The notes below the pieces were generated by a model. That model had not been told where the DNA came from. It ran no database searches and worked only from the letters and a program-made list of their open reading frames with translations. Of a DNA stretch of 64,000 nucleotides, positions 26,051 to 57,932 are shown piece after piece (positions within the stretch are counted from its first letter, which is position 1; each line of letters starts with the position of its first letter). The stretch covers positions 2,997,419 to 3,061,418 of the forward strand of contig NZ_CP186479.1 of assembly GCF_049354815.1 (NCBI RefSeq), read 5' to 3'. Both the position numbers and the translations under genes were made by a program. Source of the stretch: Devosia sp. CN2-171 (lineage in GTDB: Bacteria > Pseudomonadota > Alphaproteobacteria > Rhizobiales > Devosiaceae).

Positions 26051-26066
26051 TGTTCCACGTGAATCC
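26051..26066. promoter_or_regulatory. parS-like site TGTTCCACGTGAATCC (14/16)
   Basis: In the 30-bp gap between the convergent aminotransferase and GGDEF-EAL genes. Confidence 0.7.
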
Positions 26067-26076
26067 GCGGAACAGC

Positions 26077-28026
26077 TCACGTCCCGCGCATCGCTCCCGT
26101 GGCCCGGCGCTCGGGCCCGCGGCGCGGGGCTGCCGGCGCGGCATCCGACATGCGCAGCAACCGATGCACCGCCTCGCGCGGCATCGGGTTGGCGATGAGG
26201 AACCCCTGCGCTTCGGCAAAGCCCATGTCGCAGACCCGATCGAGCTGCGCCGCGGTCTCGATCCCCTCGACCGTGGTGCGTATGCCCATGCGGCGGCCGA
26301 TATCGGCGACGGCGCCCAGAACGATCGCAGCCCGGCTGCCGTCGTCGCCAGCAACGAACGGCCCGCCGATCTTGAGCTTGTCGAAGGGGAAATCGAGCAG
26401 GTAGCTCAGCGCCGAGAAGCCGGTGCCGAAATCGTCCAGCGCGATCCCCAGGCCAAGTCCGCGCAGCTGTTTGAGGATCTCGATGTTGGTGCCCGTGGCG
26501 GCGAGCAACGCGCTCTCGGTGATTTCGAGCTCGACACGCTCATGGGCGATGCCGCTCGCGGCCAGCGCGTCGACCACCACGCCGACGAGATTGCCACGTT
26601 CGAACTGCACAGGTGACACATTGATGGCGATGCGCTGCCCACTGGGCCATTGCGCCGCCTCGGCCAGCGCTTCGTGGATCGCCCATTCGCCGATCGGGGC
26701 GATAAGGCCCAACTCTTCGGCCAGCGGGATGAAATCGGCCGGCAGGATCATGCCGGCGGTCGGATGGTGCCAGCGTAGCAGCGCCTCGAAGCCGGTGATG
26801 GTGCGCGAGGTGAGGTCGAGCACCGGCTGGTAGTGCAGCTCCAGCTCGTCGCCCGCCAGCGCATGCCGCAGGTCGCGCTCCAGCCGGCTGCGGTCGGAAA
26901 TAGCGCCGGCGAGATCTGGGGCAAAGAAGCGCTGCCCGCCGCGCCGCCCGCGCTTGATCGAATAGAGCGCGAGGTCGCCGTTCTGCAGCAGCCGATCCGG
27001 ACCGCCGCCGTCGCGCGGCGCCATGGCGATGCCGATGCTGACCCCGACCAGCACCGCATGCGCGTCGATCTCGAAGGGCCGGCGGATTTCCTCGAGGATC
27101 TGCTTGGCCAGCGCCGTTGCACTGTCATCGGTGGCGCCCGGCAGCAGAACAGCGAACTCGTCGCCACCCATACGGCCCACAGTGCCGCCGTCGCCGAGGC
27201 AATGGCGCAGCCGCGCCGCGACCTGGCGCAACAGGTTGTCGCCGGCCGCATGGCCCATGGAATCGTTGATCGCCTTGAAGCCGTCGAGATCGAGGCAAAG
27301 CACGGCAAAGCTGCCGCCCGGCGGCAGCGTTTCGAAGGCGAGGCCGAGGCGCTGGTAGAACAGGTTGCGGTTGGGCAGCTCGGTCAGCGGGTCGTGATAG
27401 GCTTGGAAGGCGAGCTCGGCCTGCATGTTGTGGAGTTCGGTGATGTCCTTGTGCATCGTCACCCAGCCGCCATCCGGCATGGCGCGGTGGCTGACCGAGA
27501 CGACGCGGCCATTGTTGAGATGGTGCGTCGCCGATGAGCTCAATCCATCGCGTGCCGCCGCCAGCCGCTCCTCGAGATAGGCCTTGGGATCGTTGCCGGC
27601 CGAGGTCCCGGCGACGATGCGGGCCTTGATGATGGCGGTGAGCGAGGTGCCGCGCCGGCCGAAACGGCGCGGCAGGCTGTACATTTCGAGATACTGCTGG
27701 TTGCACACCACGAGGCGCTCGTGCCTGTCGAACATGGCGAGGCCTTGCGCCATGTTCTCCAGCGCGGTGGCGAACCGGGTGTTCTGGGTCCGCAGCCGCT
27801 CCTGGCTGAGCCGCAGCTTGCCGGTTTGCCTCTTGATCTCGGCCTGCAGCCCGACCTGGAACTCCATCAGCTCGCCGACCATCAGCTCGATCGAGCGGTC
27901 GGTGCGGGCGCGATCCTGCTCGACTTCCTCATAGGCGGCTGCGACCAGCCGTCCGAGGGTGTCGAGGTCGACATGGCCGGTGTCGTCAGTGGCTTTTTCG
28001 AGCTGCCGGTCGAACAGTTTACGCAC
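26077..28026 (-). CDS. PAS-GGDEF-EAL cyclic-di-GMP signalling protein
   Basis: A GGDEF motif (RMGGDEFAVLL) and an EAL domain (ELEITES, DDFGTGFSAL) are present. 649 aa. Confidence 0.85.
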   Translation of the reverse strand: MRKLFDRQLEKATDDTGHVDLDTLGRLVAAAYEEVEQDRARTDRSIELMVGELMEFQVGLQAEIKRQTGKLRLSQERLRTQNTRFATALENMAQGLAMFDRHERLVVCNQQYLEMYSLPRRFGRRGTSLTAIIKARIVAGTSAGNDPKAYLEERLAAARDGLSSSATHHLNNGRVVSVSHRAMPDGGWVTMHKDITELHNMQAELAFQAYHDPLTELPNRNLFYQRLGLAFETLPPGGSFAVLCLDLDGFKAINDSMGHAAGDNLLRQVAARLRHCLGDGGTVGRMGGDEFAVLLPGATDDSATALAKQILEEIRRPFEIDAHAVLVGVSIGIAMAPRDGGGPDRLLQNGDLALYSIKRGRRGGQRFFAPDLAGAISDRSRLERDLRHALAGDELELHYQPVLDLTSRTITGFEALLRWHHPTAGMILPADFIPLAEELGLIAPIGEWAIHEALAEAAQWPSGQRIAINVSPVQFERGNLVGVVVDALAASGIAHERVELEITESALLAATGTNIEILKQLRGLGLGIALDDFGTGFSALSYLLDFPFDKLKIGGPFVAGDDGSRAAIVLGAVADIGRRMGIRTTVEGIETAAQLDRVCDMGFAEAQGFLIANPMPREAVHRLLRMSDAAPAAPRRGPERRATGAMRGT

Positions 28027-28029
28027 GCG

Positions 28030-29181
28030 TCAGGCCGCCTGTTCCGTCAGCAAGGTCACGGTCATGGTCTGGTTATGCAGCTGGCAGAAGCCCGACTGCT
28101 CATGCGGGGAGATCTCGCCATAGGAGTAGAACCCGACCGGCAGGCAGTTGGGCCCGAGCTCGGCAGCCGCCGCCTCCAGCTCCTCGTCAATGCGCTGGCC
28201 CATGAGCAGGCGTCGGCCGATGCAGCTGACGAGGATGGCGACGCTCTGCGCATCCGGTCCAGGCGCGGCCCGTTCCACGGCACGATGCGTTGCTTCGGCG
28301 GCACCGGCGCATAGCCTATCGAAGCTGCCGCGCATCAGCTGGGCCGACCAGCCCTCCGGCATGTCGCCAGCAAAGGTCATGGAGCCGACGACATGGTCGA
28401 CGCCCAGGATGGTACGCACGACGCTTTGGTCGGGGTGTTTGGGATCGAAGATGCGCATGGGAAACAGCAGGGCTGAGCCCGGCAGCTTCTGACTTTCCTC
28501 GGGGCCCAGATAGAGCTTGTAGAGATCGAGGGCCGGCTTGCCGTCGACCTCGAACAGGACGTTGCCGGCCGAGCGCGTGATTTGCCGCAGAGGGCCGAAT
28601 ACGTTCCAGCCGCCAGCGCTACCATGCCCGATCCGGATAGCGTCGCCGTAGAAGCCAACCGCCGCGATGGTGTTGGGCTCGGGCGGCGCGTCGCAGCCGA
28701 CAATGGTCTGGGCGAAATCGGGGCCGTCGCCGGCAAGGCCGCCGCTCACCGGGACGGACGCTCCGATCCGGCTGGCAATACCTTCGACCAGCGCGCTGCC
28801 GTTAACTCCCAAGCCGTCGGAGAGAACGAAGATGCCGGCCAGATCCTTGTCGTTGAGTTCGGCCCCGAGGGTTGCGCCGACGCTCCTCGAGTCGGTGGGG
28901 CGAGCGATGCGAGCGCTCGCGACCCGCACCCTGGTGCTGGAGAAGTCCAAGGCGACAGCCGAGACGACATCATCGCTGACATCGGTGCCGGTGACTTGCC
29001 CGCCGGTCGAGCAGCCGAGTACGTGCGCGCGCGGAAAGCGCTCCCGCAACTGCTCGTAGGGTGCACCGTCGGCAAGCATCTGCCGGCGGCCGAAGTAGAA
29101 AACAAGCCCTGCATCGGCGGGCGCGCCGTCGGTGCCCGACCAGTGGCCTGCCTTGTCCCAGAACATCTGCGCCGCGCGCAT
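28030..29181 (-). CDS. FIST-domain sensor protein (FIST_N/FIST_C)
   Basis: 383 aa. Immediately upstream of the GGDEF-EAL gene on the same strand with a 3-bp gap. Confidence 0.65.
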   Translation of the reverse strand: MRAAQMFWDKAGHWSGTDGAPADAGLVFYFGRRQMLADGAPYEQLRERFPRAHVLGCSTGGQVTGTDVSDDVVSAVALDFSSTRVRVASARIARPTDSRSVGATLGAELNDKDLAGIFVLSDGLGVNGSALVEGIASRIGASVPVSGGLAGDGPDFAQTIVGCDAPPEPNTIAAVGFYGDAIRIGHGSAGGWNVFGPLRQITRSAGNVLFEVDGKPALDLYKLYLGPEESQKLPGSALLFPMRIFDPKHPDQSVVRTILGVDHVVGSMTFAGDMPEGWSAQLMRGSFDRLCAGAAEATHRAVERAAPGPDAQSVAILVSCIGRRLLMGQRIDEELEAAAAELGPNCLPVGFYSYGEISPHEQSGFCQLHNQTMTVTLLTEQAA

Positions 29182-29373
29182 CGGTCCCTCCCACTATCCG
29201 GCCTCACCACCAAATTGTGACAGAACAAACCTTAACGCTTCAACGTAGAGTCCTCGCCAGTTTGCTTGCAAGGCATCGCCCGCAACTACGTATGCCGCCG
29301 TTTACGGTGCCGCGACGATTTGCCGACACGAACATGCCGGCGGCAACACGCCGCTCCGCGCCCTCCCCGGGCA

Positions 29374-30345
29374 CTAACCGTTCGGCGCACCGAACCGGGC
29401 TTCGCGCTCAGCTAGCCCCTCGGCGAGCCGGCTGCGCAGGTCCACCATCCAGTACGGCTCGTCGGCAAAGGTTTCGGCCAGCGAGCGGCGCACCCGGGCG
29501 TACCAGTAGAGATCGGCGAAGCGTCGGCAAATGCCCCGTGCGCGGTCGAGATCGGGTGGCAGGGGCCGTGCCGAAGCGTAGCCGGCGAGAAATGCCGCCT
29601 CGCCGGCGTCGGCCCGCTCCGGATCGATCTCCTCGCGAACGCTCGCCACCGCCTGCTCAATGTCCATGGCGAACCAGTGGTACATCGCATCGTCGAAATC
29701 GATGGCATGGCAGCGGCCGGACGCGGCATCGAAGAAGACATTGTCACACTCGAGATCGTAGTGGCAGAGCCCGTAGGCGTCGGCGTCCCGCGGCAGTGCC
29801 GCCAGCGCGCCGGCCACCAGCTTCGCTTCGGCCCGAGCAGCGTCGGTCTCGAACCACGGCGCCATCCAGTCGAGCGCCTCGACATGGGACCAGCGCTGCG
29901 TGCCGGGTGGAGCGTAGTCGCGCGACAGCGTGTGCAACTCCGCCAATGCACGCCCATGCGCTGCGACGATCTCGTCTGCGAGGCCAGTCCGACCGAGCTG
30001 CTGGCCGGGAACCCGGCGAAATGCGGTGGCGACGAACGGTCCCCATTCGGTCTCGGACACAACCATCTGTTCGCCGCTGCGGCTGCTTATCGCCTCGGGT
30101 GCGCCAAAGCCGCGATCGCGCAGGTAGGCGATGAAGGCGAGTTCCGCCGCCACACTCTGCGGATCCTTCTCGGCCTGTGGCGCGAAGCGCAGGAAGTGCG
30201 GTTCGCCGCCGCGGAGGAAGACATAGATGGCGTTGGATGAAATCCGGTACCAGGGAAAGGGCTCCGGGTCGGGCACCCACTCGGCCGCCAGCGTTTCGGC
30301 CAGCGCGCGATTGTCGAACAGGTGTCTGAGCTTGAGCATCACGCC
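29374..30345 (-). CDS. aminoglycoside/choline-kinase-like phosphotransferase (APH family fold)
   Basis: Catalytic HYDLECDNVFFD (HxDxxxxN) and DFDDAMYH (DFD) motifs. Start at MLKLRHLF. The longer upstream ORF extension is spurious. Confidence 0.7.
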   Translation of the reverse strand, partial: GVMLKLRHLFDNRALAETLAAEWVPDPEPFPWYRISSNAIYVFLRGGEPHFLRFAPQAEKDPQSVAAELAFIAYLRDRGFGAPEAISSRSGEQMVVSETEWGPFVATAFRRVPGQQLGRTGLADEIVAAHGRALAELHTLSRDYAPPGTQRWSHVEALDWMAPWFETDAARAEAKLVAGALAALPRDADAYGLCHYDLECDNVFFDAASGRCHAIDFDDAMYHWFAMDIEQAVASVREEIDPERADAGEAAFLAGYASARPLPPDLDRARGICRRFADLYWYARVRRSLAETFADEPYWMVDLRSRLAEGLAEREARFGAPNG

Positions 30346-30462
30346 CCCCAGGGCAGGCATAGGGCATGCCGGCCATCGGATTGCCAAGAGTTTAGGTTTT
30401 CCCGGTTGCGCAAACTCCCGGCCTCGCCCATGTGAGGCGAACTTTCGAACCCCCCGAGAACG

Positions 30463-31359
30463 ATGCCCACGAACACCCCGCGCCGCGCCCTCATGCTGGT
30501 CAATCCGAACGCCCGCCGCGGCACGGCAGCGCTCGAACCGGTGATCGACCGCCTGAAGGCGGGCGACATCGAGGTCAGCATCGAGCGCTTCGATTCGCCG
30601 GACGAAGTCAGCGCCGACATCATCCGGCGCGGCGGAGAATTCGATCTCGTCATCGTCTGCGGCGGTGACGGCACGCTCAACTCGGCGGCGCGCGGCGTGC
30701 TCGCAACCGGGTTGCCCATGGGTATCCTGCCGATGGGCACGGCCAACGACCTCGCCCGGACGCTGGAGATCTCCGACAACTTGCTGCTGGCCGCGGACGT
30801 GATCATTGCCGGCAAGACGCGGCGGGTCGACCTCGGCGAAGTGAACGAGCACCCGTTCTTCAATGTCGCCAGCATCGGGCTCAGCGTCGCGCTCGCCAAC
30901 GGACTGAGCCGCGAAGCCAAGCGCCGCTGGGGTAAGCTCGGCTACGCACTCGCCGCGCTCAAGGTCCTCGCCCGCGCCAAGCCGTTCAAGGCGACGATCA
31001 TCTCCGCCCGCGGCGAGGAGAAGGTGAAGACGCTGCAGATCGCCGTCGGCAACGGCCGGCACTATGGCGGCGGCACGGTGATCGAGGCTAATGCCGCGAT
31101 CGACGACGGCCATCTCGATCTCTACAGCCTCGAGCAGGATAATGTGTTCAAGCTCTTGCTGCTGTTCGGCCACTTCCGCCGCGGCACCCACGGCGCCTGG
31201 GAAGAGGTGCGCACCGACAAATCGGTGGAGTTCGACATCCGCACCAGGGAGCCGATGGCGGTCAACACCGATGGCGACATCGTCACTTCGACGCCGGCAC
31301 ATTTCCTGATCCGCCCCGCCGCGATCGAAGTGTTCGCGCCGGTGCCGGCCGGCAGCTGA
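30463..31359 (+). CDS. YegS/BmrU-like lipid kinase (diacylglycerol-kinase catalytic domain)
   Basis: The DAGK_cat-type GGDGT motif is present. 298 aa. Confidence 0.8.
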   Translation: MPTNTPRRALMLVNPNARRGTAALEPVIDRLKAGDIEVSIERFDSPDEVSADIIRRGGEFDLVIVCGGDGTLNSAARGVLATGLPMGILPMGTANDLARTLEISDNLLLAADVIIAGKTRRVDLGEVNEHPFFNVASIGLSVALANGLSREAKRRWGKLGYALAALKVLARAKPFKATIISARGEEKVKTLQIAVGNGRHYGGGTVIEANAAIDDGHLDLYSLEQDNVFKLLLLFGHFRRGTHGAWEEVRTDKSVEFDIRTREPMAVNTDGDIVTSTPAHFLIRPAAIEVFAPVPAGS

Positions 31360-31364
31360 CCCAC

Positions 31365-31380
31365 CGTTTCACGTGAATCC
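31365..31380. promoter_or_regulatory. parS-like site CGTTTCACGTGAATCC (13/16)
   Basis: Between the convergent lipid-kinase and SPFH genes. Confidence 0.65.
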
Positions 31381-31426
31381 AGAGCGAACACCGCCGGGAG
31401 ATCGCTCCCCCCGGCGGCTTGAGTGG

Positions 31427-32969: not shown

Positions 32970-33041
32970 CGTGATGGAGGGATTCGAACCCTCTACAGTC
33001 AGATTACAAATCTGATGCTCTTACCCAATGAGCTACATCCA
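32970..33041 (-). tRNA. tRNA-like gene, closest to tRNA-Thr(TGT); D-, anticodon- and T-arms canonical but the acceptor stem pairs only 4/7 as read
   Basis: The reverse complement gives TA-GCTC-ATTGGGTAA-GAGC, an anticodon arm TCAGA-TTTGTAA-TCTGA and a T-arm GAGGG-TTCGAAT-CCCTC. The 5' acceptor ATGGATG does not pair fully with the 3' CATCACG. An alternative reading of the loop gives a GTA anticodon. Confidence 0.5.
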
Positions 33042-39025: not shown

Positions 39026-39040
39026 GGTAGGGTCCGCCCT

Positions 39041-39076
39041 TGCTTATCCTCCCCCGCTCCGCAGGGGAGGATAAGG
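39041..39076. terminator. hairpin GCTTATCCTCCCC-cgctccgca-GGGGAGGATAAGG immediately 3' of secB; shares the CCTCCCC/GGGGAGG theme with the MITE TIRs
   Basis: Read directly. Confidence 0.5.
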
Positions 39077-39080
39077 CGGC

Positions 39081-40387: not shown

Positions 40388-41217
40388 AGCGTCGCCTCCA
40401 CCTTCTGGCGCAGCTCCGCCGTCACCTCCGGCCGCACCCCGAACCAGGCCTCGAAGCCGGGAACCGCCTGGTGCAGCAGCATGCCAAGCCCGTCGACGGT
40501 GCGAACCCCGACGGCTCGTGCATCGGCGAGAAGCGGCGTCATCAGAGGCACGTAGACGATATCGGTCACCAGCGCCGTCTCAGGCAGCAGGCCGAGGTCG
40601 AGATCGTCGAAGCGGGACTCGTGCATGCCGATCGAGGTGGTATTGACCAGGAGGTCGGCGCCACCGGCATAGAAGGCGAAGTCGCTAAGCCGGCCCGGCG
40701 TGAAGGGGCCGTCGATCTCCCGCGCCAGTGCCTCGGCCTTTTCGGGCGTGCGATTGAGCAGCACGATTTCCTTGAACCCCCGTTCGCGCAGGGCGACGAG
40801 GATGGCCCGGGCCGCGCCGCCGGCGCCGAGGACGATGGCTCGACCCAGCCGTACGCTCCAGCCTGGGGCGTTCTGGTCGAGATTGCCGAGAAAGCCCATG
40901 TAGTCGGTGTTGAAGCCGCGGATGCGGCCGCCTTCTTCACGCACCAGCGTATTCACCGCACCGATCGTTTCGGCCAGCGGGTCGATGCTGTCGCAGAGGC
41001 GGAACACCTCCTCCTTGTGGGGAATGGTCACATTGCCGCCGACAAACTCGCCGGCCCGTACGCGCCCAACGAACCCGGCCAGATCGTCCGGCGCCACATC
41101 TATGGCGTCATAACTTCCGGCAATTGCGTGCTCGGCCAGCCAGGTGCCGTGGATCAGCGGCGAGCGCGAGTGCCTTATGGGATGGCCGATGACGAAGGCT
41201 TTTTTCACGTGAATCAT
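40384..41217 (-). CDS. aroE: shikimate dehydrogenase
   Basis: GAGGAARAI Rossmann motif and an NRT motif. The start codon is embedded in a parS site. Confidence 0.9.
   Translation of the reverse strand: MIHVKKAFVIGHPIRHSRSPLIHGTWLAEHAIAGSYDAIDVAPDDLAGFVGRVRAGEFVGGNVTIPHKEEVFRLCDSIDPLAETIGAVNTLVREEGGRIRGFNTDYMGFLGNLDQNAPGWSVRLGRAIVLGAGGAARAILVALRERGFKEIVLLNRTPEKAEALAREIDGPFTPGRLSDFAFYAGGADLLVNTTSIGMHESRFDDLDLGLLPETALVTDIVYVPLMTPLLADARAVGVRTVDGLGMLLHQAVPGFEAWFGVRPEVTAELRQKVEATL
41201..41216. promoter_or_regulatory. parS-like site TTTTTCACGTGAATCA (14/16), overlapping the aroE start codon
   Basis: Read directly. Encodes MIHVK at the aroE N-terminus. Confidence 0.65.
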
Positions 41218-41835
41218 TTTCCGAAAACGTCGGGGGCATGGAGCCGCAAGGCACCAAGCAAAGGCAAGAGTGGCAGCCCAAGGATGGTGAAATAGTCGCC
41301 TTCGACCCGTTCGAACAGGCGGATGGACGGACCTTCAAGCCGATAGCCGCCCACCGATCCGAGTACCGCTTCACCTTCCAGCGCCAGAATCTCGTCCCGT
41401 TCGGACGGCGAGAAGTCCCGCATGGTCAACCTTGCTGTCTCGACTACCGACCACAATACCGTGCCGTTTCGAGCCAGTGCGACGCCGGAATGCAGGTGAT
41501 GTGTCCGGCCACGAAGACGATCGAGCTGTCGGGCCGCTTCTCTCAGATCGACCGGTTTGTGCAGGATACTGGCCGCCAATTCCGGGCGGGGGCCGTCCGC
41601 CTCAGCCAGCACCTGATCCGCCCCGATCACCACTCCCTCCGGCCGAGTCGCCGAAACCGTCAACGCCTTCGCCTCAGCCAGCCGACGGGCGACGGCGACC
41701 GCATCGCCACCTTTCCCCAGCACTTCGGCTTCCACTGCCCGTTCGTCGATTTCCGCTGGACTCGCCTCGAATCGGAGCCCGACCCCCGCCAACAGGGCGT
41801 TTCGCGCGGCACTCTTTGAAGCAAGGATCAGCATG
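41214..41835 (-). CDS. maf: Maf-like nucleoside triphosphate pyrophosphatase
   Basis: MLILASKSAARNALL... typical Maf N-terminus. The longer upstream extension (to 41942) is possible. Confidence 0.78.
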
Positions 41836-41879
41836 CCCGGGGTTTTCCACATTGTGCTTGCTGGCTCAAGTTGGCCCTC

Positions 41880-41888
41880 GGTGGATAA
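41880..41888 (-). promoter_or_regulatory. DnaA box-like 9-mer TTATCCACC (8/9 to TTATCCACA)
   Basis: Read directly. Confidence 0.5.
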
Positions 41889-41963
41889 CCAACCCGGCAC
41901 GGCGTCATCCCAACTTGTCCCCGCTCGGACGAAATCCATCAACAGGCGGCGGCGTGCAGATCG

Positions 41964-41978
41964 TTAACAGACCGTTAA
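41964..41978. promoter_or_regulatory. CtrA box TTAACAGACCGTTAA (TTAA-N7-TTAA)
   Basis: Read directly. Confidence 0.6.
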
Positions 41979-42061
41979 GGTGAGTTCCGGGGAAAACCCA
42001 TTGCGTATGCCGAGCCGTCGTCCACACACTCGTTAAGACTTTCTCAACCACTATGGCATGG

Positions 42062-42076
42062 TTAACGCCCCGTTAA
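42062..42076. promoter_or_regulatory. CtrA box TTAACGCCCCGTTAA (TTAA-N7-TTAA)
   Basis: Read directly. Confidence 0.6.
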
Positions 42077-42175
42077 TCCCGGTGACTCCCGCTCCTGTCC
42101 ACGGGCTCCACCGGCGCAGTTTGCACAGGCATCGCGAGCCACCCTGCCGCGCGCTTCTGTCGCCGCGATCCGCGT

Positions 42176-42184
42176 TGTGGAGAA
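42176..42184 (-). promoter_or_regulatory. DnaA box-like 9-mer TTCTCCACA (8/9)
   Basis: Read directly. Confidence 0.45.
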
Positions 42185-42209
42185 GGGTGAATTCCTGCAA
42201 AACACCGCC

Positions 42210-42248
42210 ATGATAATACAAATGAAGAATCTAGATTCTTTTGGTTGG
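42210..42248. promoter_or_regulatory. AT-rich stretch (candidate DNA-unwinding element and hemE promoter) with two GANTC sites
   Basis: TGATAATACAAATGAAGAATCTAGATTCTTTTGGTTGG is far below the local GC content. Confidence 0.5.
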
Positions 42249-43741: not shown

Positions 43742-43757
43742 CGTTTCACGTGAATCC
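43742..43757. promoter_or_regulatory. parS-like site CGTTTCACGTGAATCC (13/16)
   Basis: In the hemJ-rho intergenic region. Confidence 0.65.
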
Positions 43758-43896
43758 GTTCGGCACTTGAATGTAACAGCGCTTTTGGCTATCTGAGTGC
43801 CAGCCTGATTGTTGGGCGCCTCCCCGGCGCTTTCCGGGCCACCCACCTCCCCTTCGATATCTCCCGCCACTTCGTCCCCAAGGGTCCTTACGCGCA

Positions 43897-45291: not shown

Positions 45292-46617
45292 ATGCGTAGC
45301 GATGACACCATCGTCGCCCTGTCCTCAGGCTCCGTTCCCTCGGGCGTCGCCATCATCCGGTTCTCGGGCCCGGCAGCCGGTCGGGTTCTAATCGAGATGC
45401 TCGGCGCCCTCCCCGAACCCCGACGCCTGACCCTTGCCGACATCCGCCTCGACGGCGAAACTCTCGATCGAGGCCTCATCGCCTGGATGCCCGGCCCCAA
45501 CAGCTTCACCGGCGAAGATTGCGCCGAACTCCAGGTGCACGGCTCGCCGGCCGTCGTCCGCGTAATCCTTCGCCGGCTCAGCTCACAATCTGGCATCAGG
45601 CTGGCCGAAGCCGGGGAATTCACCCGCCGCGCTTTCGAGAACGGCAAGCTCGATCTCGTCGAAGCCCAGGGCCTCGGGGATCTGATCGAGGCCGAAACCG
45701 AGAATCAGCGCGCCCTGGCCTATTCGCGCATGGAGGGTGGGCTGACCCGGCAGGTCGAAGGCTGGCGCGAGCGCCTGCTGGATCTCCGTGCCGAGATCGA
45801 AGCACAGCTCGATTTCTCTGACGAAGGCGACGTCGGTGCGCTTCCCGATACTTTTGCCGCCGAGGTTGAGGCGCTGAATGACGATATTGGCGACGTGCTG
45901 GCGACGCGCGGCCAGGGCCGAATCCTGCGGAGCGGCTTTCGTGTTGTGCTCGCGGGTCCGCCGAACGCCGGCAAGTCGAGCCTGCTTAATGCCCTGTCTC
46001 GTTCAGAGGTGGCCATCGTCTCCGATGAGCCGGGCACCACGCGCGACCTCAAGGAAGCACCGCTCGACGTCCACGGCCAACTCATCATCCTGATCGATAG
46101 CGCCGGCCTGAGGGATACGAGTTCGAAAGCCGAAGCGATCGGTGTCGAACGGGCGAAGCAGGCGATGATCGGAGCAGATCAGGTGCTTTGGCTACAGGCC
46201 CCGGATATCGCGGCGGTCCTCCCACCGATTTTTCCCGAGTTCGACACAGAGCCCTGGCGACGCCCGCCGATCATGATTGTCGGCACGAAGGCCGATATCG
46301 GGTTGGTAGAAGGTGCGCACCTGTCCGTTTCCGTCACAACCGGGGAAGGCATAGAGGCACTGCTGGACAAGCTCTACGAAGTATCAGGAGCTGGCTCCGT
46401 TCAGGCCTCGGAGCTGCTGGTGAGCCACGAGCGGGATCGCGAGGCCCTGCTGGGGGCTGTCATGGCGCTGGCGCGAGTTTCGGAACAGTTGGACAATCCA
46501 GAACTGGCTGCTGAGGAGTTGCGGGCCGCGTCCTATGCGCTCGAGCGACTGCTTGGCCGCATGGATGCGGAGTCGGTGCTCGACCGTCTGTTCAGCGCCT
46601 TTTGCATCGGCAAGTGA
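45292..46617 (+). CDS. mnmE: tRNA modification GTPase MnmE (TrmE)
   Basis: G-domain GPPNAGKSSLLN, DEPGTTRD and a C-terminal CIGK motif. The stop codon is part of a parS site. Confidence 0.93.
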   Translation: MRSDDTIVALSSGSVPSGVAIIRFSGPAAGRVLIEMLGALPEPRRLTLADIRLDGETLDRGLIAWMPGPNSFTGEDCAELQVHGSPAVVRVILRRLSSQSGIRLAEAGEFTRRAFENGKLDLVEAQGLGDLIEAETENQRALAYSRMEGGLTRQVEGWRERLLDLRAEIEAQLDFSDEGDVGALPDTFAAEVEALNDDIGDVLATRGQGRILRSGFRVVLAGPPNAGKSSLLNALSRSEVAIVSDEPGTTRDLKEAPLDVHGQLIILIDSAGLRDTSSKAEAIGVERAKQAMIGADQVLWLQAPDIAAVLPPIFPEFDTEPWRRPPIMIVGTKADIGLVEGAHLSVSVTTGEGIEALLDKLYEVSGAGSVQASELLVSHERDREALLGAVMALARVSEQLDNPELAAEELRAASYALERLLGRMDAESVLDRLFSAFCIGK

Positions 46618-46630
46618 TTCACGTGAAACG
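46615..46630. promoter_or_regulatory. parS-like site TGATTCACGTGAAACG (14/16), contains the mnmE stop codon
   Basis: Read directly. Confidence 0.7.
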
Positions 46631-46686: not shown

Positions 46687-46702
46687 TGATTCACGTGAAA
46701 CA
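46687..46702. promoter_or_regulatory. parS site TGATTCACGTGAAACA (15/16)
   Basis: In the mnmE-mnmG intergenic region. Confidence 0.75.
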
Positions 46703-48606: not shown

Positions 48607-49250
48607 TGGACGCAATCGACCGGCTTTCGGAGCATTTTCATCGGCCCGCCACCCTGGTGCGCACCGATCTGGAATCGTTTGCCACGCTGCTGCGCAAATG
48701 GAACGCTGTGCAGAATCTTGTTTCACGTGAAACAGAGTCGGCGCTGTGGGACCGGCACATCGTCGATTCCGTCCAGATTCTGCCGCTGCTTCGCCGCTCC
48801 GATGAACGCTTTCTGGACATCGGTTCAGGTGGCGGACTGCCGGCGATTCCGCTGGCCATTGCGCTAAAGGGTGGCCCGGCGAAGTTCCAGCTGGTCGAGC
48901 CGATCACCAAGAAGGTCGCCTTCCTGCGCCAGGCCATCCGCGAATTCGGCCTCGCGGCACAGGTGCATGCCGGCCGCAGCGACGATTTTGATTCACGTGA
49001 AACATCGCCGGTCGAGTTTGACGTGATCACCTCCCGCGCCCTCGCGGCGCTGCCGATGCTGCTGGGACTTATCCACCCCTTCTTTGGCCCGGAAACCCGC
49101 GCAATCCTGCACAAGGGGCGAGACTACGCGCGCGAACTCGAAGAAAGCCGTTTGGCCTGGGACTTTGACGTGGTATTAACCGACAGCGCCACGGAAATGG
49201 GCGCCGTATTGCTGCAGATCAGCAATTTGCGAATAAAACCAGTTAGTTAG
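48603..49250 (+). CDS. rsmG: 16S rRNA (guanine527-N7)-methyltransferase RsmG (GidB)
   Basis: SAM-binding [15 protein letters not shown]. Contains two in-frame parS sites. Confidence 0.9.
48719..48734. promoter_or_regulatory. parS site TGTTTCACGTGAAACA (16/16, perfect palindrome), inside the rsmG CDS
   Basis: Read directly. Confidence 0.85.
48989..49004. promoter_or_regulatory. parS site TGATTCACGTGAAACA (15/16), inside the rsmG CDS
   Basis: Read directly. Confidence 0.8.
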
Positions 49251-49274: not shown

Positions 49275-50075
49275 TTGGCTCCTCGTATCCTGACCCTTGC
49301 CAACCAGAAGGGCGGAGTCGGTAAGACCACCACCGCCATCAACCTTGCGACCGCCCTCGCCGCCATCGGCGAGCGCGTGCTGATCGTTGATCTCGATCCA
49401 CAAGGCAATGCGTCCACCGGGCTCGGTATCAGCCGTCTCGGGCGCGACGTATCGAGTTATGACCTGCTGATGGGCGATGCCCGGGTGGCTGAAGCCGCCG
49501 TGATGACGAGTGTGCCCAACGTCGCGATCGTGCCCTCGACGCTCGACCTGCTCGGCGTCGAGTTGACAATCGCGCAGCAGGCCGATCGCGCCTTCCGGCT
49601 GCGCGACGCCTTCAAGGCCATGCATGAGCTGACCATCAATGGCCAGCATGTCAGCTACGTGCTGATCGATTGCCCGCCCTCGCTTAACCTGTTGACGATC
49701 AACGCACTTGTGGCTGCCGATGCGGTGTTGGTGCCGCTGCAGTGCGAGTTTTTTGCACTCGAGGGCATGAGCCAGCTGCTGCAGACGATCGAGCAGATCC
49801 GCTCGACGCTCAACCCACGGCTCAGCATCCAGGGCGTAGTGATGACCATGTTCGATCGGCGCAACAATCTCAGCGAGCAGGTGCTGCAGGACGTGCGATC
49901 GGAGATGGGATCGCTGGTTTACGATACTGTGATACCGCGCAATGTCCGGCTCTCCGAAGCGCCATCCTACGGCAAGCCGGCACTGCTCTACGACCTCAAA
50001 TGCGCAGGCAGCCAAGCGTATCTCCGCCTTGCCACCGAGGTGATCCGGCGCGAGCGGCAGCTCGTAGCGGCATGA
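49275..50075 (+). CDS. parA: chromosome partitioning ATPase ParA (Soj)
   Basis: Deviant Walker A KGGVGKTT. TTG start. Confidence 0.93.
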   Translation: MAPRILTLANQKGGVGKTTTAINLATALAAIGERVLIVDLDPQGNASTGLGISRLGRDVSSYDLLMGDARVAEAAVMTSVPNVAIVPSTLDLLGVELTIAQQADRAFRLRDAFKAMHELTINGQHVSYVLIDCPPSLNLLTINALVAADAVLVPLQCEFFALEGMSQLLQTIEQIRSTLNPRLSIQGVVMTMFDRRNNLSEQVLQDVRSEMGSLVYDTVIPRNVRLSEAPSYGKPALLYDLKCAGSQAYLRLATEVIRRERQLVAA

Positions 50076-50086: not shown

Positions 50087-50959
50087 ATGAACGAGAAACC
50101 CTCCCGGCTCGGGCGCGGCCTCGCAGCGCTGATCGGCGATATGGCGACCATGGAGGGCGCGCGGCTAGCCGATAGCGGCAGCGGGAAGCGCCTGCCGGTC
50201 GATTTCCTCATCGCCAACCGGGCCAATCCGCGCCGGGAGTTCGATGCCGAACAGCTCGAGGAGCTGACGAACTCGGTGCGCGAGAAGGGCGTGATGCAGC
50301 CCTTGCTCGTCCGGCCGACCACCGATCCGAACATGTTCGAGATCATCGCCGGCGAGCGCCGCTGGCGTGCCGCGCAGCGCGCCGGCCTCTCCGATGTTCC
50401 GGTGGTCGTGCGCGAAGTCGACGACAAAGAAGCGCTCGAACTCGCGATCATCGAGAACGTCCAGCGCGTCGACCTCAATCCGCTCGAAGAAGCAATGGGT
50501 TACGGCCAGCTGATCGAGCAGTTCGATTACACGCAGAACGACCTCGCCCAGGTCATTGGCAAGTCGCGCTCGCATGTCGCCAACACGTTGCGGCTGCTAA
50601 AGCTGCCGGAGGACGTGCGCGGAATGATGGCGCGCGGCGAGCTAACGGCCGGTCACGCCCGCACGCTGATCACCGCCGAGGATCCGACGGCCCTCGCCCG
50701 CCGCATCGTCGGTGGCGGCCTTTCGGTGCGCGAAGCTGAGGTGCTGACCCAGCGCGAGCTCGCGTCGCCGAAGAAGAAGGCCGCACCGGCGCCGCAGAAG
50801 GACGCCGACACCGCGGCGCTCGAGAAGCGCCTGTCGGACGTGCTCGGCCTCCACGTCGCCATCGACCACAAGGAGCAGGGCGGCCGCCTCGAAATCCGCT
50901 ACCGCACGCTCGAACAGCTCGACGGCATCTGCATGAAGCTTACTGGTTACGGGGTCTAG
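50087..50959 (+). CDS. parB: chromosome partitioning protein ParB (Spo0J), CTPase clamp
   Basis: ParB-box GERRWRAA and an HTH motif. About 290 aa. Confidence 0.93.
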   Translation: MNEKPSRLGRGLAALIGDMATMEGARLADSGSGKRLPVDFLIANRANPRREFDAEQLEELTNSVREKGVMQPLLVRPTTDPNMFEIIAGERRWRAAQRAGLSDVPVVVREVDDKEALELAIIENVQRVDLNPLEEAMGYGQLIEQFDYTQNDLAQVIGKSRSHVANTLRLLKLPEDVRGMMARGELTAGHARTLITAEDPTALARRIVGGGLSVREAEVLTQRELASPKKKAAPAPQKDADTAALEKRLSDVLGLHVAIDHKEQGGRLEIRYRTLEQLDGICMKLTGYGV

Positions 50960-51090
50960 TCGCCTAACTGGCAGAAGGTCACGGCCTATCGATGCACCTT
51001 GTGTGGAACTTCAGGTCCAGGTCCGCCTGAGTTCTGGCTCAGTCCCGCTTCAGAATCCGTTCATGAGCGTTCAGAATCCGGTCGCAGTCA

Positions 51091-51107
51091 GGGCAGCTGG
51101 CCTGCCC
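51091..51107. terminator. hairpin GGGCAG-ctggc-CTGCCC between the convergent parB and holA genes
   Basis: Read directly. Confidence 0.4.
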
Positions 51108-51117
51108 TATTACATCG

Positions 51118-51133
51118 TGCTCCACGTGAAACA
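51118..51133. promoter_or_regulatory. parS site TGCTCCACGTGAAACA (15/16)
   Basis: Between the convergent parB and holA genes. Confidence 0.75.
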
Positions 51134-51138
51134 TTCGG

Positions 51139-52670: not shown

Positions 52671-55284
52671 TGATGATCCTGTCCGGAACGATCACGACCT
52701 TCTTGGGCGGCTTGCCGTCCAGCATGCGGGCAACCGCGTCGATAGACAAGGCCTCGCGCTCGACGAGGTCGTTTGGCGACCCCTTGGGCACGGTGATCTC
52801 GCCGCGGCGCTTGCCGTTGACCTGCACCGGGATGATGACGTCGGAATCGACCAGCAGCGCCGGATCGGCCGCGGGCCAGCCGGCGTCGCAGATCATGCCG
52901 GACTTGCCCAGCGCGGCCCAGCAGGCCTCGGCGAGGTGCGGCATCATCGGCGCGACGAGCTGGATCAGGCGCTCGATACCCTCATGCAGGGCGCCGATGC
53001 GGCCCGGCGTCGGGTTGGCGGCGGTAGCGGCGATGAACTTGGCGAGCCCGTTGCTCAGCTCGTAGATCTGGGCTACAGCGCGATTGAAGCGCAGCCCTTC
53101 GATCTCGGTGCCGACATTGGCGACGGTGCGGTGGACGAGCCGCCGGATGGTCGCCGTCTCATCGTCCGACATATCGGGCGCGCCGGCGGGATTGCCGAAA
53201 AGGTCCAGCGCATCGCCGACCAGCTTCCAGACGCGCTGCAGAAAGCGCGACGAGCCTTCGATGCCCGCTTCCGTCCACTGCACGTCGCGCTCCGGCGGTG
53301 AGTCCGACAGCATGAACCAGCGGGCCGTATCGGCGCCGTAGGTGCGGACGATCTCGTCCGGGTCGACGACGTTCTTCTTCGATTTGCTCATCTTTTCGAT
53401 GGAGCCAATCTCGATGGCGGCGCCGGTCGTCGCATGCACGGCCGTGCGGTTATCGCCGCCGGAAATGGTGATGTCGGCCGGCGAGACCCATTCGCCACTC
53501 GCGTCGCGATAGGTCTCGTGCACCACCATGCCCTGGGTGAAGAGGCCCTTGAACGGCTCTTCGATGTTGAGGTGCCCCGTCTTCTTCATCGCTCGCGTGA
53601 AGAAGCGCGAATAGAGCAGGTGCAGGATCGCATGCTCGACGCCGCCGATGTACTGATCGACCGGCAGCAGCGAGTTGGCAACGCCCGGAATGGTCGGGGT
53701 CTCGGCATGCGGCGCGGTAAAGCGGGCAAAATACCAGGAGCTGTCGACGAACGTGTCCATCGTGTCGGTCTCGCGCGTCGCGGCGCCACCGCATTTGGGG
53801 CAGGCGACGTGCTTCCAGGTCGGATGGTGGTCGAGCGGATTGCCGGGTCGATCGAAGGTCACGTCCTCGGGCAGCACCACCGGCAGGTCCTTGTCGGGAA
53901 CCGGCACGGTGCCGCAGTTCTCGCAGTGGATCACCGGGATCGGGCAGCCCCAGTAGCGCTGACGGCTGACGCCCCAGTCGCGCAGGCGATAGTTGACCTC
54001 AACCGTGCCCTGCGGCCGGTTGTCGAGGGCGCGGGCGCCAAAATACTCGGCGATCTTCTTCTTGGCGGCGTCGATCTCGAGCCCGTCGAGGAAGTCCGAG
54101 TGATAGATGCGGCCCGGGCCGTTGTAGGCCTCGGCCTCCACCTCGAACTCGCCGGCGTCGGCGCCTTCCGGCAGCACCACCGGGATCACCGGCAGGCCGT
54201 ACCGACGGGCGAAGTCGAGGTCGCGCTGGTCATGCGCCGGGCAGCCGAAAATGGCGCCGGTGCCGTAGTCCATCAGCACGAAGTTCGCGACATAGACGGG
54301 CAGCGTGGCGCCGGGCTTGACGGGATGTTTCACGTGCAAGCCGGTGAAAACACCCAGCTTTTCGGCCTTGTCGATGGCTTCGGTAGCCGTTCCCTGGCGG
54401 TGCGTCTCGGCGATGAAAGCGGCGATCGCCGGCTGCTCAGACAGGGCCTTCGCCAGCGGATGGTCGGCAGAAATGGCAATGAAGCTCGCGCCGAAGATGG
54501 TGTCCGGGCGGGTGGTGAAGACCTCGATCGAGGTGCAATCGTCCTTCGGGGTGTCGAGCTCGAACAGCAGCCGCAGGCCTTCGGACTTGCCGATCCAGTT
54601 GCGCTGCATGGTGCGCACCTTCTCCGGCCAGTGGTCGAGCGTATCGAGCGCCTCCAGCAGGTCCTCGGCATAGTCGGAGACCTTGAAGGCCCACTGGTTG
54701 AGTTCGCGCTGCTCAACGACCGCTCCCGAGCGCCAGCCCCGGCCATCGACCACCTGCTCGTTGGCGAGCACGGTCATGTCGACGGGATCCCAGTTCACCT
54801 TGGATTTGCGGCGGGTAACGAGGCCCTCGCGCAGCATGTCGAGGAAGAGCTTCTGCTGCTTGGAATAATACTCGACGTCGCAGGTGGCGAACTCGCGCGT
54901 CCAGTCGATGCCCAGCCCGATCGATTTCAGCTGGTCGCGCATGGTGGCGATGTTGGCGTAGGTCCAGGCCTTGGGGTGGACCTTGTTCTGCATGGCGGCA
55001 TTCTCGGCCGGCAGGCCGAAGGCGTCCCAGCCCATCGGGTGCAGCACGGCAAAGCCCTTGGCACGCTTGTAGCGCGCCAGCACGTCGCCCATGGTATAGT
55101 TGCGCACGTGCCCCATGTGGATGCGGCCGGACGGATAGGGGAACATCTCGAGCACGTAGTAGGGCTCGCGCGTGTCGCCGGGTTCGAGCACGAAGGAACG
55201 CGCCTCGTCCCAGGCCTTCTGCCACCGCGGCTCTTCGACACGCGGATTGTAGCGCTCGCTCGTTCTACCAGTCACTTCGGACAC
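52657..55284 (-). CDS. leuS: leucine--tRNA ligase
   Basis: 875 aa. HIGH motif ([11 protein letters not shown]) and KMSKS motif. Confidence 0.96.
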
Positions 55285-55376
55285 GTCCTCAAAGTCGCAG
55301 TTTGCGTTGCGTTCACAGGGGTTTTTGGCTACCGGACCTTCATCAGAATTCCGTTAACCGGTCAACAGAGAGCGCC

Positions 55377-56042
55377 ATGCCGACCGCTGCCGAGCGCCTG
55401 GAGAATATCATCGACCGGATCGAGACGGCACGCCGCCGTTTTGGTCCACCGCCGGACCGTGTGCAGCTGGTCGCGGTCTCGAAGACGTTCGATGCCGCAG
55501 CAATCCGGCCGTTTCTTGACGCCGGGCAGCGCGTCTTCGGTGAGAACCGGGTGCAGGAAGCGCAGAGCAAGTGGCCTGAGCTGCGGGTCTCCTATGACGG
55601 CATAGAACTGCATCTAATCGGGCCGTTGCAGACCAACAAGGCCCGCGAAGCGGTAGCGCTGTTCGATGTGATCCAGACTGTCGATCGCGACAAGCTCGCC
55701 GGCGTGCTCCGCGCCGAGATGGGCCGGGCCGGCCGGCAGCTGCCGGTGTTCGTGCAGGTCAATATCGGCCGCGAGGAGCAAAAGGCAGGCATAGCGCCGC
55801 TCGAGGCGGTGGAATTCGTGGCGCGCTGTCGGAGCGTCCACGGGCTCGATGTCGTCGGCCTCATGTGCATCCCGCCGGAGGGCGATCCGGCCGGACCCTA
55901 TTTTGCCCATCTCGCCGCGCTGGCACGCGACGCGAAGGTGGAGAAGCTGTCCATGGGGATGAGCAACGATTTCGAAACCGCCATCGCCATGGGCGCAACG
56001 CATGTCCGCGTCGGCAGTGCGTTGTTCGGGGCACGGGGCTAA
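55377..56042 (+). CDS. yggS: YggS-family pyridoxal-phosphate homeostasis protein
   Basis: LVAVSKT lysine motif and an alanine-racemase-N-like fold. About 221 aa. Confidence 0.85.
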   Translation: MPTAAERLENIIDRIETARRRFGPPPDRVQLVAVSKTFDAAAIRPFLDAGQRVFGENRVQEAQSKWPELRVSYDGIELHLIGPLQTNKAREAVALFDVIQTVDRDKLAGVLRAEMGRAGRQLPVFVQVNIGREEQKAGIAPLEAVEFVARCRSVHGLDVVGLMCIPPEGDPAGPYFAHLAALARDAKVEKLSMGMSNDFETAIAMGATHVRVGSALFGARG

Positions 56043-56437
56043 TTCCGCGCGGGTGCTATGGTGGCATAGCAGCCCGCTGCGGGGCTGAGTAGTTGGCCGA
56101 CATCGTGCCCACAACGCAGGGCAGACCCATGTGCTCGAACACCTCCCGGTGCGGGAGGCCCAACCCACGAACCTCCAGCAGCAGTCGTCCCAGCGCAGGC
56201 TGAGACCCAAGCTCAGCGGGTGCGAGCTGAGAGAGATGGATCCCTGCCTTTGCAGGGATGACGCCGAGGTTGGTCGGACCTGCAGTGAACGTCGGCTCTC
56301 ATACATGGCAGGACGCCGGTCGCCAGCGACCACCAACATACTAGTGACCTAGTTCCATTGTCCTTGCCGCAAGGCCTCGCCTGTCAGCGTCCTGTCAGCT
56401 TTCGGCGTCTATCGAATTTAGGCGGACCCAGGTGAAA

Positions 56438-56451
56438 CTTTGACGTGTCAA
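56438..56451. promoter_or_regulatory. 14-bp perfect palindrome TTTGACgtGTCAAA, flanked by GAAAC/GTTTC, about 105 bp upstream of the response-regulator gene; candidate operator
   Basis: Read directly. Confidence 0.4.
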
Positions 56452-56554
56452 ATCACGTTTCTAGTCGTGTAGCGATGTAACGCCGTTTTGATTGGCCGGG
56501 CGTGCGGGCCCAGCATAACTCAGGAATACAGGGCCGATGGCTTGGGGTAACACG

Positions 56555-57238
56555 ATGAATAGACGGCGTATTCTGATCGTTGATGACGATGGCGACCTGC
56601 GCAAGACTCTCGTCGATCAGCTGAACCCCTACCGCGAGTTCGACCTCGTCGAAGCAGAAACGGCCGCAGATGCGCTGGGCAAGGTGCGTGGCGCCCATAT
56701 CGACCTGATGCTGCTCGATGTCGGCCTGCCCGACATGGATGGGCGCGAGGCGGTGAAAATCCTCCGCCGCGAGGGCTTCAAGAGCCCGATCATCATGCTG
56801 ACCGCGCAGGACAGCGACGCCGACGAGATCCTCGGGCTCGAATCCGGCGCCAACGACTATGTGACCAAGCCCTTTCGCTTCTCGGTGCTGCTGGCCCGCA
56901 TCCGTGCCTCGCTGCGCCAACACGACCAGAGCGAGGACGTGGTTTTCACCATCGGGCCCTACAGCTTCCAGCCGGCGGCCAAGATGCTCGAATCGCCGGA
57001 TGGTCAGAAGGTGCGGCTGACCGACAAGGAAACCTCGATCCTGAAATATCTCTACCGGCAGGGTCCCAAAACCATCACCCGCGAGATTCTGCTGAAGGAA
57101 GTGTGGGGGTACAACAACCGCGTCACCACCCACACGCTCGAGACGCACATCTACCGCCTGCGCCAGAAAATCGAGCGCGATCCGTCCAACGCCCGGCTCC
57201 TCGTTACCGAAGAGGGCGGCTATCGGCTGGTGCCGTAA
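56555..57238 (+). CDS. OmpR/winged-helix family response regulator (CtrA/CenR-like subfamily)
   Basis: Receiver domain with the phospho-acceptor region LLDVGLPDMDG and a C-terminal trans_reg_C domain (...THIYRLRQKI). Confidence 0.8.
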   Translation: MNRRRILIVDDDGDLRKTLVDQLNPYREFDLVEAETAADALGKVRGAHIDLMLLDVGLPDMDGREAVKILRREGFKSPIIMLTAQDSDADEILGLESGANDYVTKPFRFSVLLARIRASLRQHDQSEDVVFTIGPYSFQPAAKMLESPDGQKVRLTDKETSILKYLYRQGPKTITREILLKEVWGYNNRVTTHTLETHIYRLRQKIERDPSNARLLVTEEGGYRLVP

Positions 57239-57449
57239 GGCGCAGCCGCCTGGCCGGGACGCGGGGTCCCTCCCTCCCTGCGTCCCTGCCGGTTTTTCCC
57301 CCACCCGGTGCATAACCCGGCGGCTTTCCACCAGCTGGGGCAAAATCGGTTCCTGACATCGGGAAGAAATGCTCTATATCGGGGGCTGCGGCACGACCGG
57401 GCGCCATCTGGCGCTCGCGACTGAAGCGCGGTGCGGGAATAAGGGCGGG

Positions 57450-57905
57450 ATGCAACTCGACGACGCTGCGACCATATTGGGACGTGCGGATTTCTTCGAA
57501 ATCTGCGACGCCGAGCAGAGGCGTCTGCTTGCGTTTGCGTCCGAGCGCAAGAAGTTCCGGCCCAACTCGGTGATCTACTCCGCCGGCGACATGCCAGAGG
57601 GCGCGCATGTGCTCGTCTCGGGCACGGTGTCGAGTACCCAGGAGGGGGCCGAGAACAACCCGTTCCTGATCCATGATGTCGGCTCCGTCCTCGGCGCGAT
57701 GGGCCTCGTGATTGCCAAGCCGCGGCCCGTGACGATCAAGGCGATCGATGCGGTCGAAACGCTGTTCGTGCCGCGCACGGCGTTCATGAAGCTTGCCAAC
57801 CAGTATCCTGACCTCGCCGGCCGGGCGGCGGACCGCATCCGCCGCGAGCTGACCGGCTATCTCGGCGCCATCGAAGAGGCGCGGGGCCGGTTCAGGAAGG
57901 GCTGA
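57450..57905 (+). CDS. cyclic-nucleotide-binding domain protein lacking an obvious DNA-binding domain (Crp/Fnr-family-like)
   Basis: About 151 aa, cNMP-binding beta-barrel only. Confidence 0.55.
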   Translation: MQLDDAATILGRADFFEICDAEQRRLLAFASERKKFRPNSVIYSAGDMPEGAHVLVSGTVSSTQEGAENNPFLIHDVGSVLGAMGLVIAKPRPVTIKAIDAVETLFVPRTAFMKLANQYPDLAGRAADRIRRELTGYLGAIEEARGRFRKG

Positions 57906-57916
57906 GGCCGGCCGGA

Positions 57917-57932
57917 CGTTCCACGTGAATCA
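57917..57932. promoter_or_regulatory. parS-like site CGTTCCACGTGAATCA (14/16), overlapping the ridA stop codon
   Basis: Fills the gap between two convergent genes. Confidence 0.7.

Follow-up and report, generated by a model that had tools for sequence, protein, structure and literature searches.

Do the centromere sites of a bacterial chromosome lie where they do among the genes because those positions serve a further function, or because they are the positions at which such sequences are least costly to keep? The question is raised by a 64-kb window of Devosia sp. CN2-171 (contig NZ_CP186479.1, positions 2,997,419 to 3,061,418, the whole stretch of 64,000 nucleotides that was analysed), which carries parA and parB together with a series of parS-like sequences, the presumed binding sites of the ParB protein. 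An initial annotation had drawn attention to six of these, in short gaps between convergent genes or at stop and start codons (26051, 31365, 51118, 57917, 46615 and 41201). All six are present at these coordinates, but the selection passes over seven further sites (48719, 48989, 19332 and 54326 within genes, together with 4439, 43742 and 46687); the observation on parS placement is real but selective, and to that extent is confirmed. The interpretation that we favour, with about even confidence, is that the 13 sites are candidate ParB loading sites of a multi-site centromere and that differences in constraint, more than any second function, account for the bias in their placement. Judged from its sequence, the window holds an ordinary alphaproteobacterial parS cluster with a mild placement bias.

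The parS-like sites and their placement

A search of the whole window for 16-mers with no more than three mismatches to the 16-bp consensus inverted repeat TGTTNCACGTGAAACA gives 13 parS-like sites, against 0.68 expected from shuffled sequence. One site matches the strict consensus perfectly, two have one mismatch, four have two and six have three. Beyond these there are no 16-mers with four mismatches and three with five, and the empty class at four marks the 13 sites as a distinct population. Of the 19 CACGTG hexamers that the window contains, 13 fall within parS-like sites, and nine of the sites lie between 41.2 and 57.9 kb, near the candidate origin of replication (oriC) and parAB. A mixed type predominates, nine of the 13 pairing one GTTTCAC half-site with one GATTCAC (the TGTTTCACGTGAATCA type), whilst none of the 13 has two GATTCAC halves. 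The mixed variant is also found in a relative, L054, whose ParB is 58% identical (at 3994, 4617, 6171 and 6208), and the asymmetric half-site may reflect a lineage-specific preference of ParB.

The parB product itself is the cognate ParB of chromosomal type and has the helix-turn-helix domain that binds parS, as its TIGR00180 match (Table 1) and its best solved-structure match, Caulobacter ParB-parS (6T1F, E=1.8e-75), indicate. It is 99% identical to the ParB encoded by a metagenome-assembled genome, whilst its identity to the ParB of many Devosia species is 76-90%, and the gene order of the window is kept by Devosia relatives across the genus. By analogy with Caulobacter and Bacillus, ParB would nucleate on each 16-mer, close as a cytidine triphosphate (CTP) clamp and slide onto the adjacent DNA. 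Between 41.2 and 57.9 kb the sites are spaced 0.07 to 3.6 kb apart, and the same analogy would make of them one partition complex.

Placement was assessed on a hand-checked gene map of the window (G+C content ~0.65), with 67 genes and 11.6% of bases non-coding. Of its ten convergent junctions, all but one have a gap, and the nine gaps have a summed length of 1065 bp; gene ends were verified with NCBIfam and Pfam. Non-coding DNA holds eight of the 13 sites (p=2e-5), and four of these eight lie in convergent gaps, which make up 14.4% of intergenic bases (p=0.019). Counted by gap, sites occur in four of nine convergent gaps and in three of 41 others (Fisher p=0.015), and of the five convergent junctions from 26 to 58 kb, four hold a site. 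The association with stop codons is stronger: six of the 13 sites overlap a stop codon or lie no more than 5 bp from one, against 2.9% expected (p=8e-7), as do five of the eight intergenic sites, against 9% expected (p=3e-4), and the result holds at thresholds of 5-30 bp. For three genes (maf, mnmE and ridA) the stop codon is the TGA of the half-site TGATTCAC itself.

Base composition as the sole cause of the intergenic bias is ruled out by near-miss 16-mers with 6-9 mismatches. Of these, 14-23% are non-coding and 1-6% lie in convergent gaps, compared with 62% and 31% of the real sites; their intergenic excess is slight, and an excess in convergent gaps is not seen consistently. A different possibility is that nothing beyond chance and shared ancestry lies behind the convergent-gap pattern, with 13 sites subjected to post hoc tests and positions inherited along with synteny. 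The initial annotation had called the placement non-random, and this stands in graded form: the departure is strong against uniform placement over the 64-kb window, but only nominal against random intergenic placement (p about 0.02, post hoc). Within the occupied gaps, taken as given, the skew towards stops is marginal by hand calculation (about p=0.06). Two of the four convergent-gap sites are lineage-specific, and the excess rests on weak sites, comprising three of the six with three mismatches but one of the seven with two or fewer. Against chance stand the strength and stability of the proximity to stops, which moreover recurs at non-orthologous sites of other Devosia species, and we regard chance as an unlikely source of the pattern.

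Table 1. parS-like sites, hairpins, motifs and genes of the window (mismatches are to the strict 16-bp consensus)
Feature	Positions	Strand	Sequence or motif	Mismatches	Context and basis
parS-like site	4439-4454		GGTTTCACGTGAATCA	2	Divergent gap of 450 bp between ompA-like gene and lipase gene; outside the interval of the initial annotation
parS-like site	19332-19347		CGCTTCACGTGAATCA	3	Inside hisA, 32 bp before stop; reads I-D-S-R-E-A
parS-like site	26051-26066		TGTTCCACGTGAATCC	3	Fills 30-bp convergent gap between aminotransferase stop (26046) and GGDEF-EAL stop (26077)
parS-like site	31365-31380		CGTTTCACGTGAATCC	3	67-bp convergent gap, 5 bp past lipid-kinase stop
parS-like site	41201-41216		TTTTTCACGTGAATCA	2	Minus-strand TGA is maf stop; aroE ATG overlaps (ATGA)
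parS-like site	43742-43757		CGTTTCACGTGAATCC	3	hemJ-rho gap, 20 bp past hemJ stop, 139 bp before rho ATG
parS site	46615-46630		TGATTCACGTGAAACG	2	First three bases are mnmE TGA stop
parS site	46687-46702		TGATTCACGTGAAACA	1	mnmE-mnmG gap, 41 bp upstream of mnmG ATG
parS site	48719-48734		TGTTTCACGTGAAACA	0	Inside rsmG; reads L-V-S-R-E-T
parS site	48989-49004		TGATTCACGTGAAACA	1	Inside rsmG; reads F-D-S-R-E-T
parS site	51118-51133		TGCTCCACGTGAAACA	2	179-bp parB/holA convergent gap, 5 bp from holA stop
parS-like site	54326-54341		TGTTTCACGTGCAAGC	3	Inside leuS; one mismatch is in the inner right arm
parS-like site	57917-57932		CGTTCCACGTGAATCA	3	24-bp convergent gap; minus-strand TGA is ridA stop
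Stable hairpin	26047-26078		GGGTTGTTCC / GGAACAGCTC		Spans convergent gap; left parS arm plus flank, no T tract
GC-rich hairpin	31391-31417		CCGCCGGG...CCCGGCGG		Downstream of SPFH gene, separate from parS 31365; kept in L069, which has no parS there
GC-rich hairpin	51090-51108		AGGGCAG-CTGGC-CTGCCCT		parB/holA gap; ends 9 nt upstream of parS 51118
Promoter-like motif	43767-43794	+	TTGAAT-N17-GCTATCT		9 nt downstream of parS 43742, about 102 nt upstream of rho start
Gene block dnaQ-coaE-aroE-maf		minus			Before 410-bp non-coding stretch; NCBIfam and Pfam scans
maf	41214-41834	minus			Pfam Maf, 4.9e-42
Candidate oriC	41835-42244				Between maf and hemE; DnaA-box-like and CtrA-box (TTAA-N7-TTAA) motif matches only
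Gene block hemE-hemJ-rho-mnmE-mnmG-rsmG-parA-parB		plus			After 410-bp non-coding stretch; NCBIfam and Pfam scans
parA	49275-50075	+			NCBIfam/Pfam scan
parB	50087-50959	+			Cognate centromere-binding CTPase; TIGR00180 ParB/Spo0J at 4e-55
Gene block holA-lptE-leuS		minus			After parB; NCBIfam and Pfam scans

The order of these genes is that of the usual alphaproteobacterial origin region. DnaA-box-like 9-mers occur in the candidate oriC at 41843, 41880 and 42176, and CtrA boxes, both perfect, at 41964 and 42062; its end, near 42150-42244, is rich in A+T. At the other side of maf lies site 41201, whose overlap with the aroE ATG had been described correctly in the initial annotation, although the overlapping maf gene was not recognised there; a simple codon-score gene caller overlooks maf as well. 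With the gene identified by its Pfam match on the minus strand, the site is an operon-internal ATGA stop/start junction and not a promoter-side position, and the alternative of an oriC edge in a divergent gap is excluded. The remainder of the site encodes the aroE residues I-H-V-K.

Proposed constraint and turnover of parS in Devosia

How might the bias arise if the positions had no second function? A 16-bp A+T-rich palindrome, with TGA in one frame on each strand, would be costly in genes rich in G+C at third codon positions, and would also be a risk within promoters and ribosome-binding regions. Weaker and mobile sites at the periphery of the cluster would then turn over, persisting in the least constrained spacer just past a stop codon, and in a short convergent gap this post-stop spacer would be the entire gap. 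Old, strong sites of the core would be retained whatever their context, including the interior of rsmG and the promoter side of rho. Constraint of this sort accounts for the hugging of stop codons, for the three cases in which TGA serves as the stop, and for stop-proximal co-directional sites in relatives.

The genes mnmE and maf share the ending Gly-Lys-TGA, after which comes TTCACGTGAAA (46612-46617 and 41214-41219). The terminal Gly-Lys of mnmE is presumably that of the conserved C-terminal CIGK motif, in which case parS 46615 begins at the first base without protein constraint. Three of the in-gene sites (48719 and 48989 in rsmG, 19332 in hisA) share one frame, xxT G[T/A]T TCA CGT GAA, which gives [V/D]-S-R-E. 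Third codon positions in this genome are ~85% G+C, but the codons of these sites end in A or T, a signature of selection on the DNA and not on the protein.

The distinction between a retained core and a mobile periphery can be followed in about 55 Devosia loci, compared over 10 kb on each side of parB. Site contexts were classified by anchoring on orthologs; gene calls from a codon model, which missed rsmG in lower-GC Devosia, were dropped. The two rsmG sites, the mnmE-stop site and the second site in the mnmE-mnmG gap occur in nearly all loci, the position of 46615 being kept in 45 and that of 46687 in 52, and a distant relative (ParB 58% identical) retains the mnmE-stop, mnmE-mnmG and rsmG sites. 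A site is present in the parB/holA gap of 45 loci and in the hemJ-rho gap of 42. Lower counts are found for the leuS-internal site (12 loci), the maf/aroE junction (10), the hisA site (7 related loci) and the equivalent of 57917, in a gap between the cyclic-nucleotide (cNMP) gene and ridA or xth (only 3); the co-directional gap upstream of xth has a site in 13.

Conservation by position gives a similar division, although the measure is partly ascertainment-biased, the sites having been found by consensus matching: in the intergenic classes the 16-mer carries 1.64-1.95 bits per position and the 24-nt flanks 0.10-0.45, with 1.95 against 0.25-0.44 for the 46687 class. Six classes (mnmE stop, mnmE-mnmG, the two in rsmG, hemJ-rho and parB/holA) are kept beyond the conservation of their flanks, whilst 26051 and 31365 are not. 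At leuS the site is conserved no better than its coding flanks (1.69 bits, flanks 1.43 and 1.53), and the leuS 16-mer is doubtful as a functional site.

Sites 26051 and 31365 fit the turnover proposed for the periphery. In a comparison of eight related contigs, with the aminotransferase gene as anchor, no parS was found at the corresponding places, and the DNA downstream of this gene is rearranged in relatives. L069 has an aminotransferase/SPFH convergent gap with the same terminator hairpin as that at 31391-31417 but without parS; site 31365 fills the spacer between stop and hairpin, whereas in L069 the hairpin is 3 bp from the stop. In the related contigs the identical 16-mer TGTTCCACGTGAATCC lies in a co-directional gap, ~75 bp ahead of the start of an ABC-transporter gene and shortly after the stop of the gene before it (6-12 bp past that stop in three of four species), and further stop-proximal sites are found in co-directional gaps of L013 (at 11672) and L029 (at 20771).

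Some of the weak 16-mers appear in more than one context. The sequence CGTTTCACGTGAATCC is present twice in the window, at 31365 and 43742, and TGTTCCACGTGAATCC is shared by site 26051, the gap ahead of the ABC-transporter gene in relatives (L064 13126, L065 13120) and the hemJ-rho gap of L002-L007. A 5.3-kb block (26077-31359, with GGDEF-EAL, FIST, APH and lipid-kinase genes) has a parS at either end; the two are oriented alike, and each comes after CAGCTGA. The recurring 16-mers and the bracketed block suggest copying or rearrangement at parS sites; the flanks have no further homology.

The parB/holA gap is persistently occupied by parS. It still has a site in several species in which the gap is 24-30 bp long, and in some the parB TAG overlaps parS. 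Expansion of the gap is seen in L004-L007 and L009, with repeated G+C-rich elements resembling repetitive extragenic palindromes (REP) or miniature inverted-repeat transposable elements (MITE) (ctctccccagaggggcgaggggacgc and its complement), and in L009 with a 3.6-kb insertion that carries a gene; parS remains beside the holA stop in all five.

Several points weigh against constraint as the main cause of the bias. If sites simply settled on free DNA, they would be expected in the intergenic regions of 450-760 bp, yet only one of four such gaps is occupied (the 450-bp gap with 4439), and the convergent-gap sites favour gaps of 24-67 bp. The keeping of parS in parB/holA gaps of 24-30 bp looks like positive retention there and not mere tolerance. 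In Pseudomonas aeruginosa, also of high G+C, nine of ten parS are reported to be within coding sequences (PMC4368675), so coding placement is not generally forbidden. The placement tests and their thresholds were, in addition, picked post hoc for n=13 sites. The near-empty long intergenic regions and the persistent occupancy of the parB/holA gap are thus not fully explained by constraint, and a functional link to transcription retains some weight.

Terminators, promoters and the transcription of parS

One such link would be for the parS palindrome itself to serve as an intrinsic terminator hairpin, as the initial annotation had proposed. This we consider very improbable. The folding energy of each 16-mer alone is between 0 and -3.9 kcal/mol, and when folded in 76 nt of context the arms pair fully only at 48719, which lies inside rsmG. 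No T tract follows any site, with 0-4 T in the 10 nt downstream on either strand, and a terminator scan of the window gives no match at any of the 13. The conserved asymmetry of the half-sites (TGATTCAC/GTGAAACA) sets A opposite A in the hairpin and so breaks the pairing of the arms. Only at 26051 is a site overlapped by a stable hairpin (-17.5 and -18.2 kcal/mol, z -3.3 and -3.6), which speaks for termination at this one place; yet the hairpin makes use of the flank, and its flank partner is absent where the same 16-mer TGTTCCACGTGAATCC occurs in relatives.

Another link would involve bound ParB rather than the palindrome. Converging RNA polymerases could push ParB clamps back to parS, so that the partition complex stays compact, or a ParB roadblock could replace a terminator in a gap of 24-30 bp. 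In yeast, cohesin piles up between convergent genes, which offers an analogy for the confinement of clamps by polymerases. The 24-bp gap at 57917 is indeed unstructured (z +0.9 and +2.3), whilst two convergent gaps without parS (39026-39080 and 3486-3586) have strong hairpins of -29 to -44 kcal/mol, and the retention of parS in the shortest parB/holA gaps of several species would also be expected. But two of the four parS gaps have GC-rich hairpins of their own, of which that at 31391-31417 is likely to be the real terminator of its gap, and a third has the stable hairpin that overlaps its site. In the parB/holA gap of L027, L028, L037, L043, L045 and L046, parS abuts a canonical terminator (e.g. 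GAAACCGCCC...GGGCGGTTTTT), the last bases of parS forming the foot of the terminator stem. The sample is four gaps, and we give this kind of interplay a low probability.

The second of the two gaps without parS contains a half-parS, TGTTCCACGTGG, at 3494-3505, 8 bp past a stop codon. This may be what is left of a former site, or else one of the half-sites that P. aeruginosa ParB binds.

The initial annotation also stated that none of the sites sits in an obvious promoter, and proposed that ParB is kept off promoters by placing parS in transcription-free or termination zones. The first statement fails for the region. Site 43742 adjoins a promoter-like motif upstream of rho, which we take to resemble alphaproteobacterial housekeeping promoters, and 46687 is close to the mnmG ATG. 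The rho motif recurs, as TTGAA-N16-19-GCTAnnT, in 37 of 43 related loci, where its distance to the start of rho varies little (102-117 nt). It probably acts as a promoter, and its position would imply a conserved rho leader of ~100 nt.

The proposal itself, that selection sets parS where transcription ends and so keeps ParB nucleation complexes from occluding promoters, is at best partly right. It draws on the excess of sites in convergent gaps (half of the intergenic sites, with 14% expected), on the occupation of four among the five convergent junctions between 26 and 58 kb, and on the occupancy of the parB/holA gap in 45 of about 55 loci, even where the gap is 24-30 bp. Promoter-proximal sites can moreover be costly, given that ParB bound at the intergenic parS3 and parS4 of P. 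aeruginosa, upstream of genes, represses the adjacent promoters (PMC7022226). A strict rule of promoter avoidance is, however, contradicted by 43742, whose arrangement 9 nt upstream of the promoter-like element is kept genus-wide, by 46687, by 4439 in its divergent gap, and by the sites of relatives upstream of xth and of the ABC-transporter start; the strongest sites, for their part, are inside rsmG. Nor are the favoured positions always transcription-free, since a site between a stop codon and a terminator hairpin, such as 31365, is in transcribed DNA. Promoter avoidance is at most a tendency.

Placement of this adaptive kind is hard to tell apart from the effects of constraint, and we regard it as rather unlikely as the principal cause. 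A weaker form, in which new parS sites arise under a general 'stop-codon-anchored' rule as part of a joint functional-placement reading, also has but a small probability.

Comparison with other parS clusters

The placement of parS differs between the known systems. The ParABS system of Caulobacter crescentus is among the closest; the two organisms share membership of the Alphaproteobacteria and the 16-bp consensus. Caulobacter has seven parS near parAB (PMC5815017), and in both cases strong and weak sites are clustered at parAB and the origin. Caulobacter ParB spreads over ~2 kb at each of its sites, probably under some influence of transcription. The Devosia cluster is the larger, with 13 candidate sites over 54 kb, and differs in the asymmetric half-site TGATTCAC that is present in most of its sites. 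Binding is weak at two of the seven Caulobacter sites, for which a role in vivo was considered improbable (PMC5815017). By analogy, the Devosia sites with three mismatches may be similarly unimportant in vivo.

In Corynebacterium glutamicum, an actinobacterium, ten parS lie within 35 kb near oriC and nine of the ten are intergenic (PMC7083940). It is the nearest published precedent for the intergenic bias in Devosia, which for its part also has strong in-gene sites. P. aeruginosa resembles Devosia in its high G+C and its origin-proximal parS (PMC4368675, PMC5521831, PMC7022226), but the predominance of coding sites noted above is the opposite of the Devosia bias, so there is no universal placement rule. 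Intrinsic terminators, bidirectional ones included, occupy the same places as Devosia parS, the 3' spacers of convergent genes; the parS palindromes differ from them in having no stable G+C-rich stem and no U tract. A literature search within the searchable library for a convergent-gap or stop-codon rule for parS found none.

For Devosia itself, the practical value of these results lies in the annotation of its centromere and origin. They also counsel caution, in that weak parS matches should not be over-interpreted: if 26051, 31365 and 57917 were not bound by ParB, the convergent-gap signal would shrink to 51118 alone. Should the bias towards stop codons and convergent spacers recur among sites gained independently across many genomes, it would provide a simple rule for where centromere sites can evolve, and with it a way into the question of how ParB clamps share DNA with RNA polymerase.

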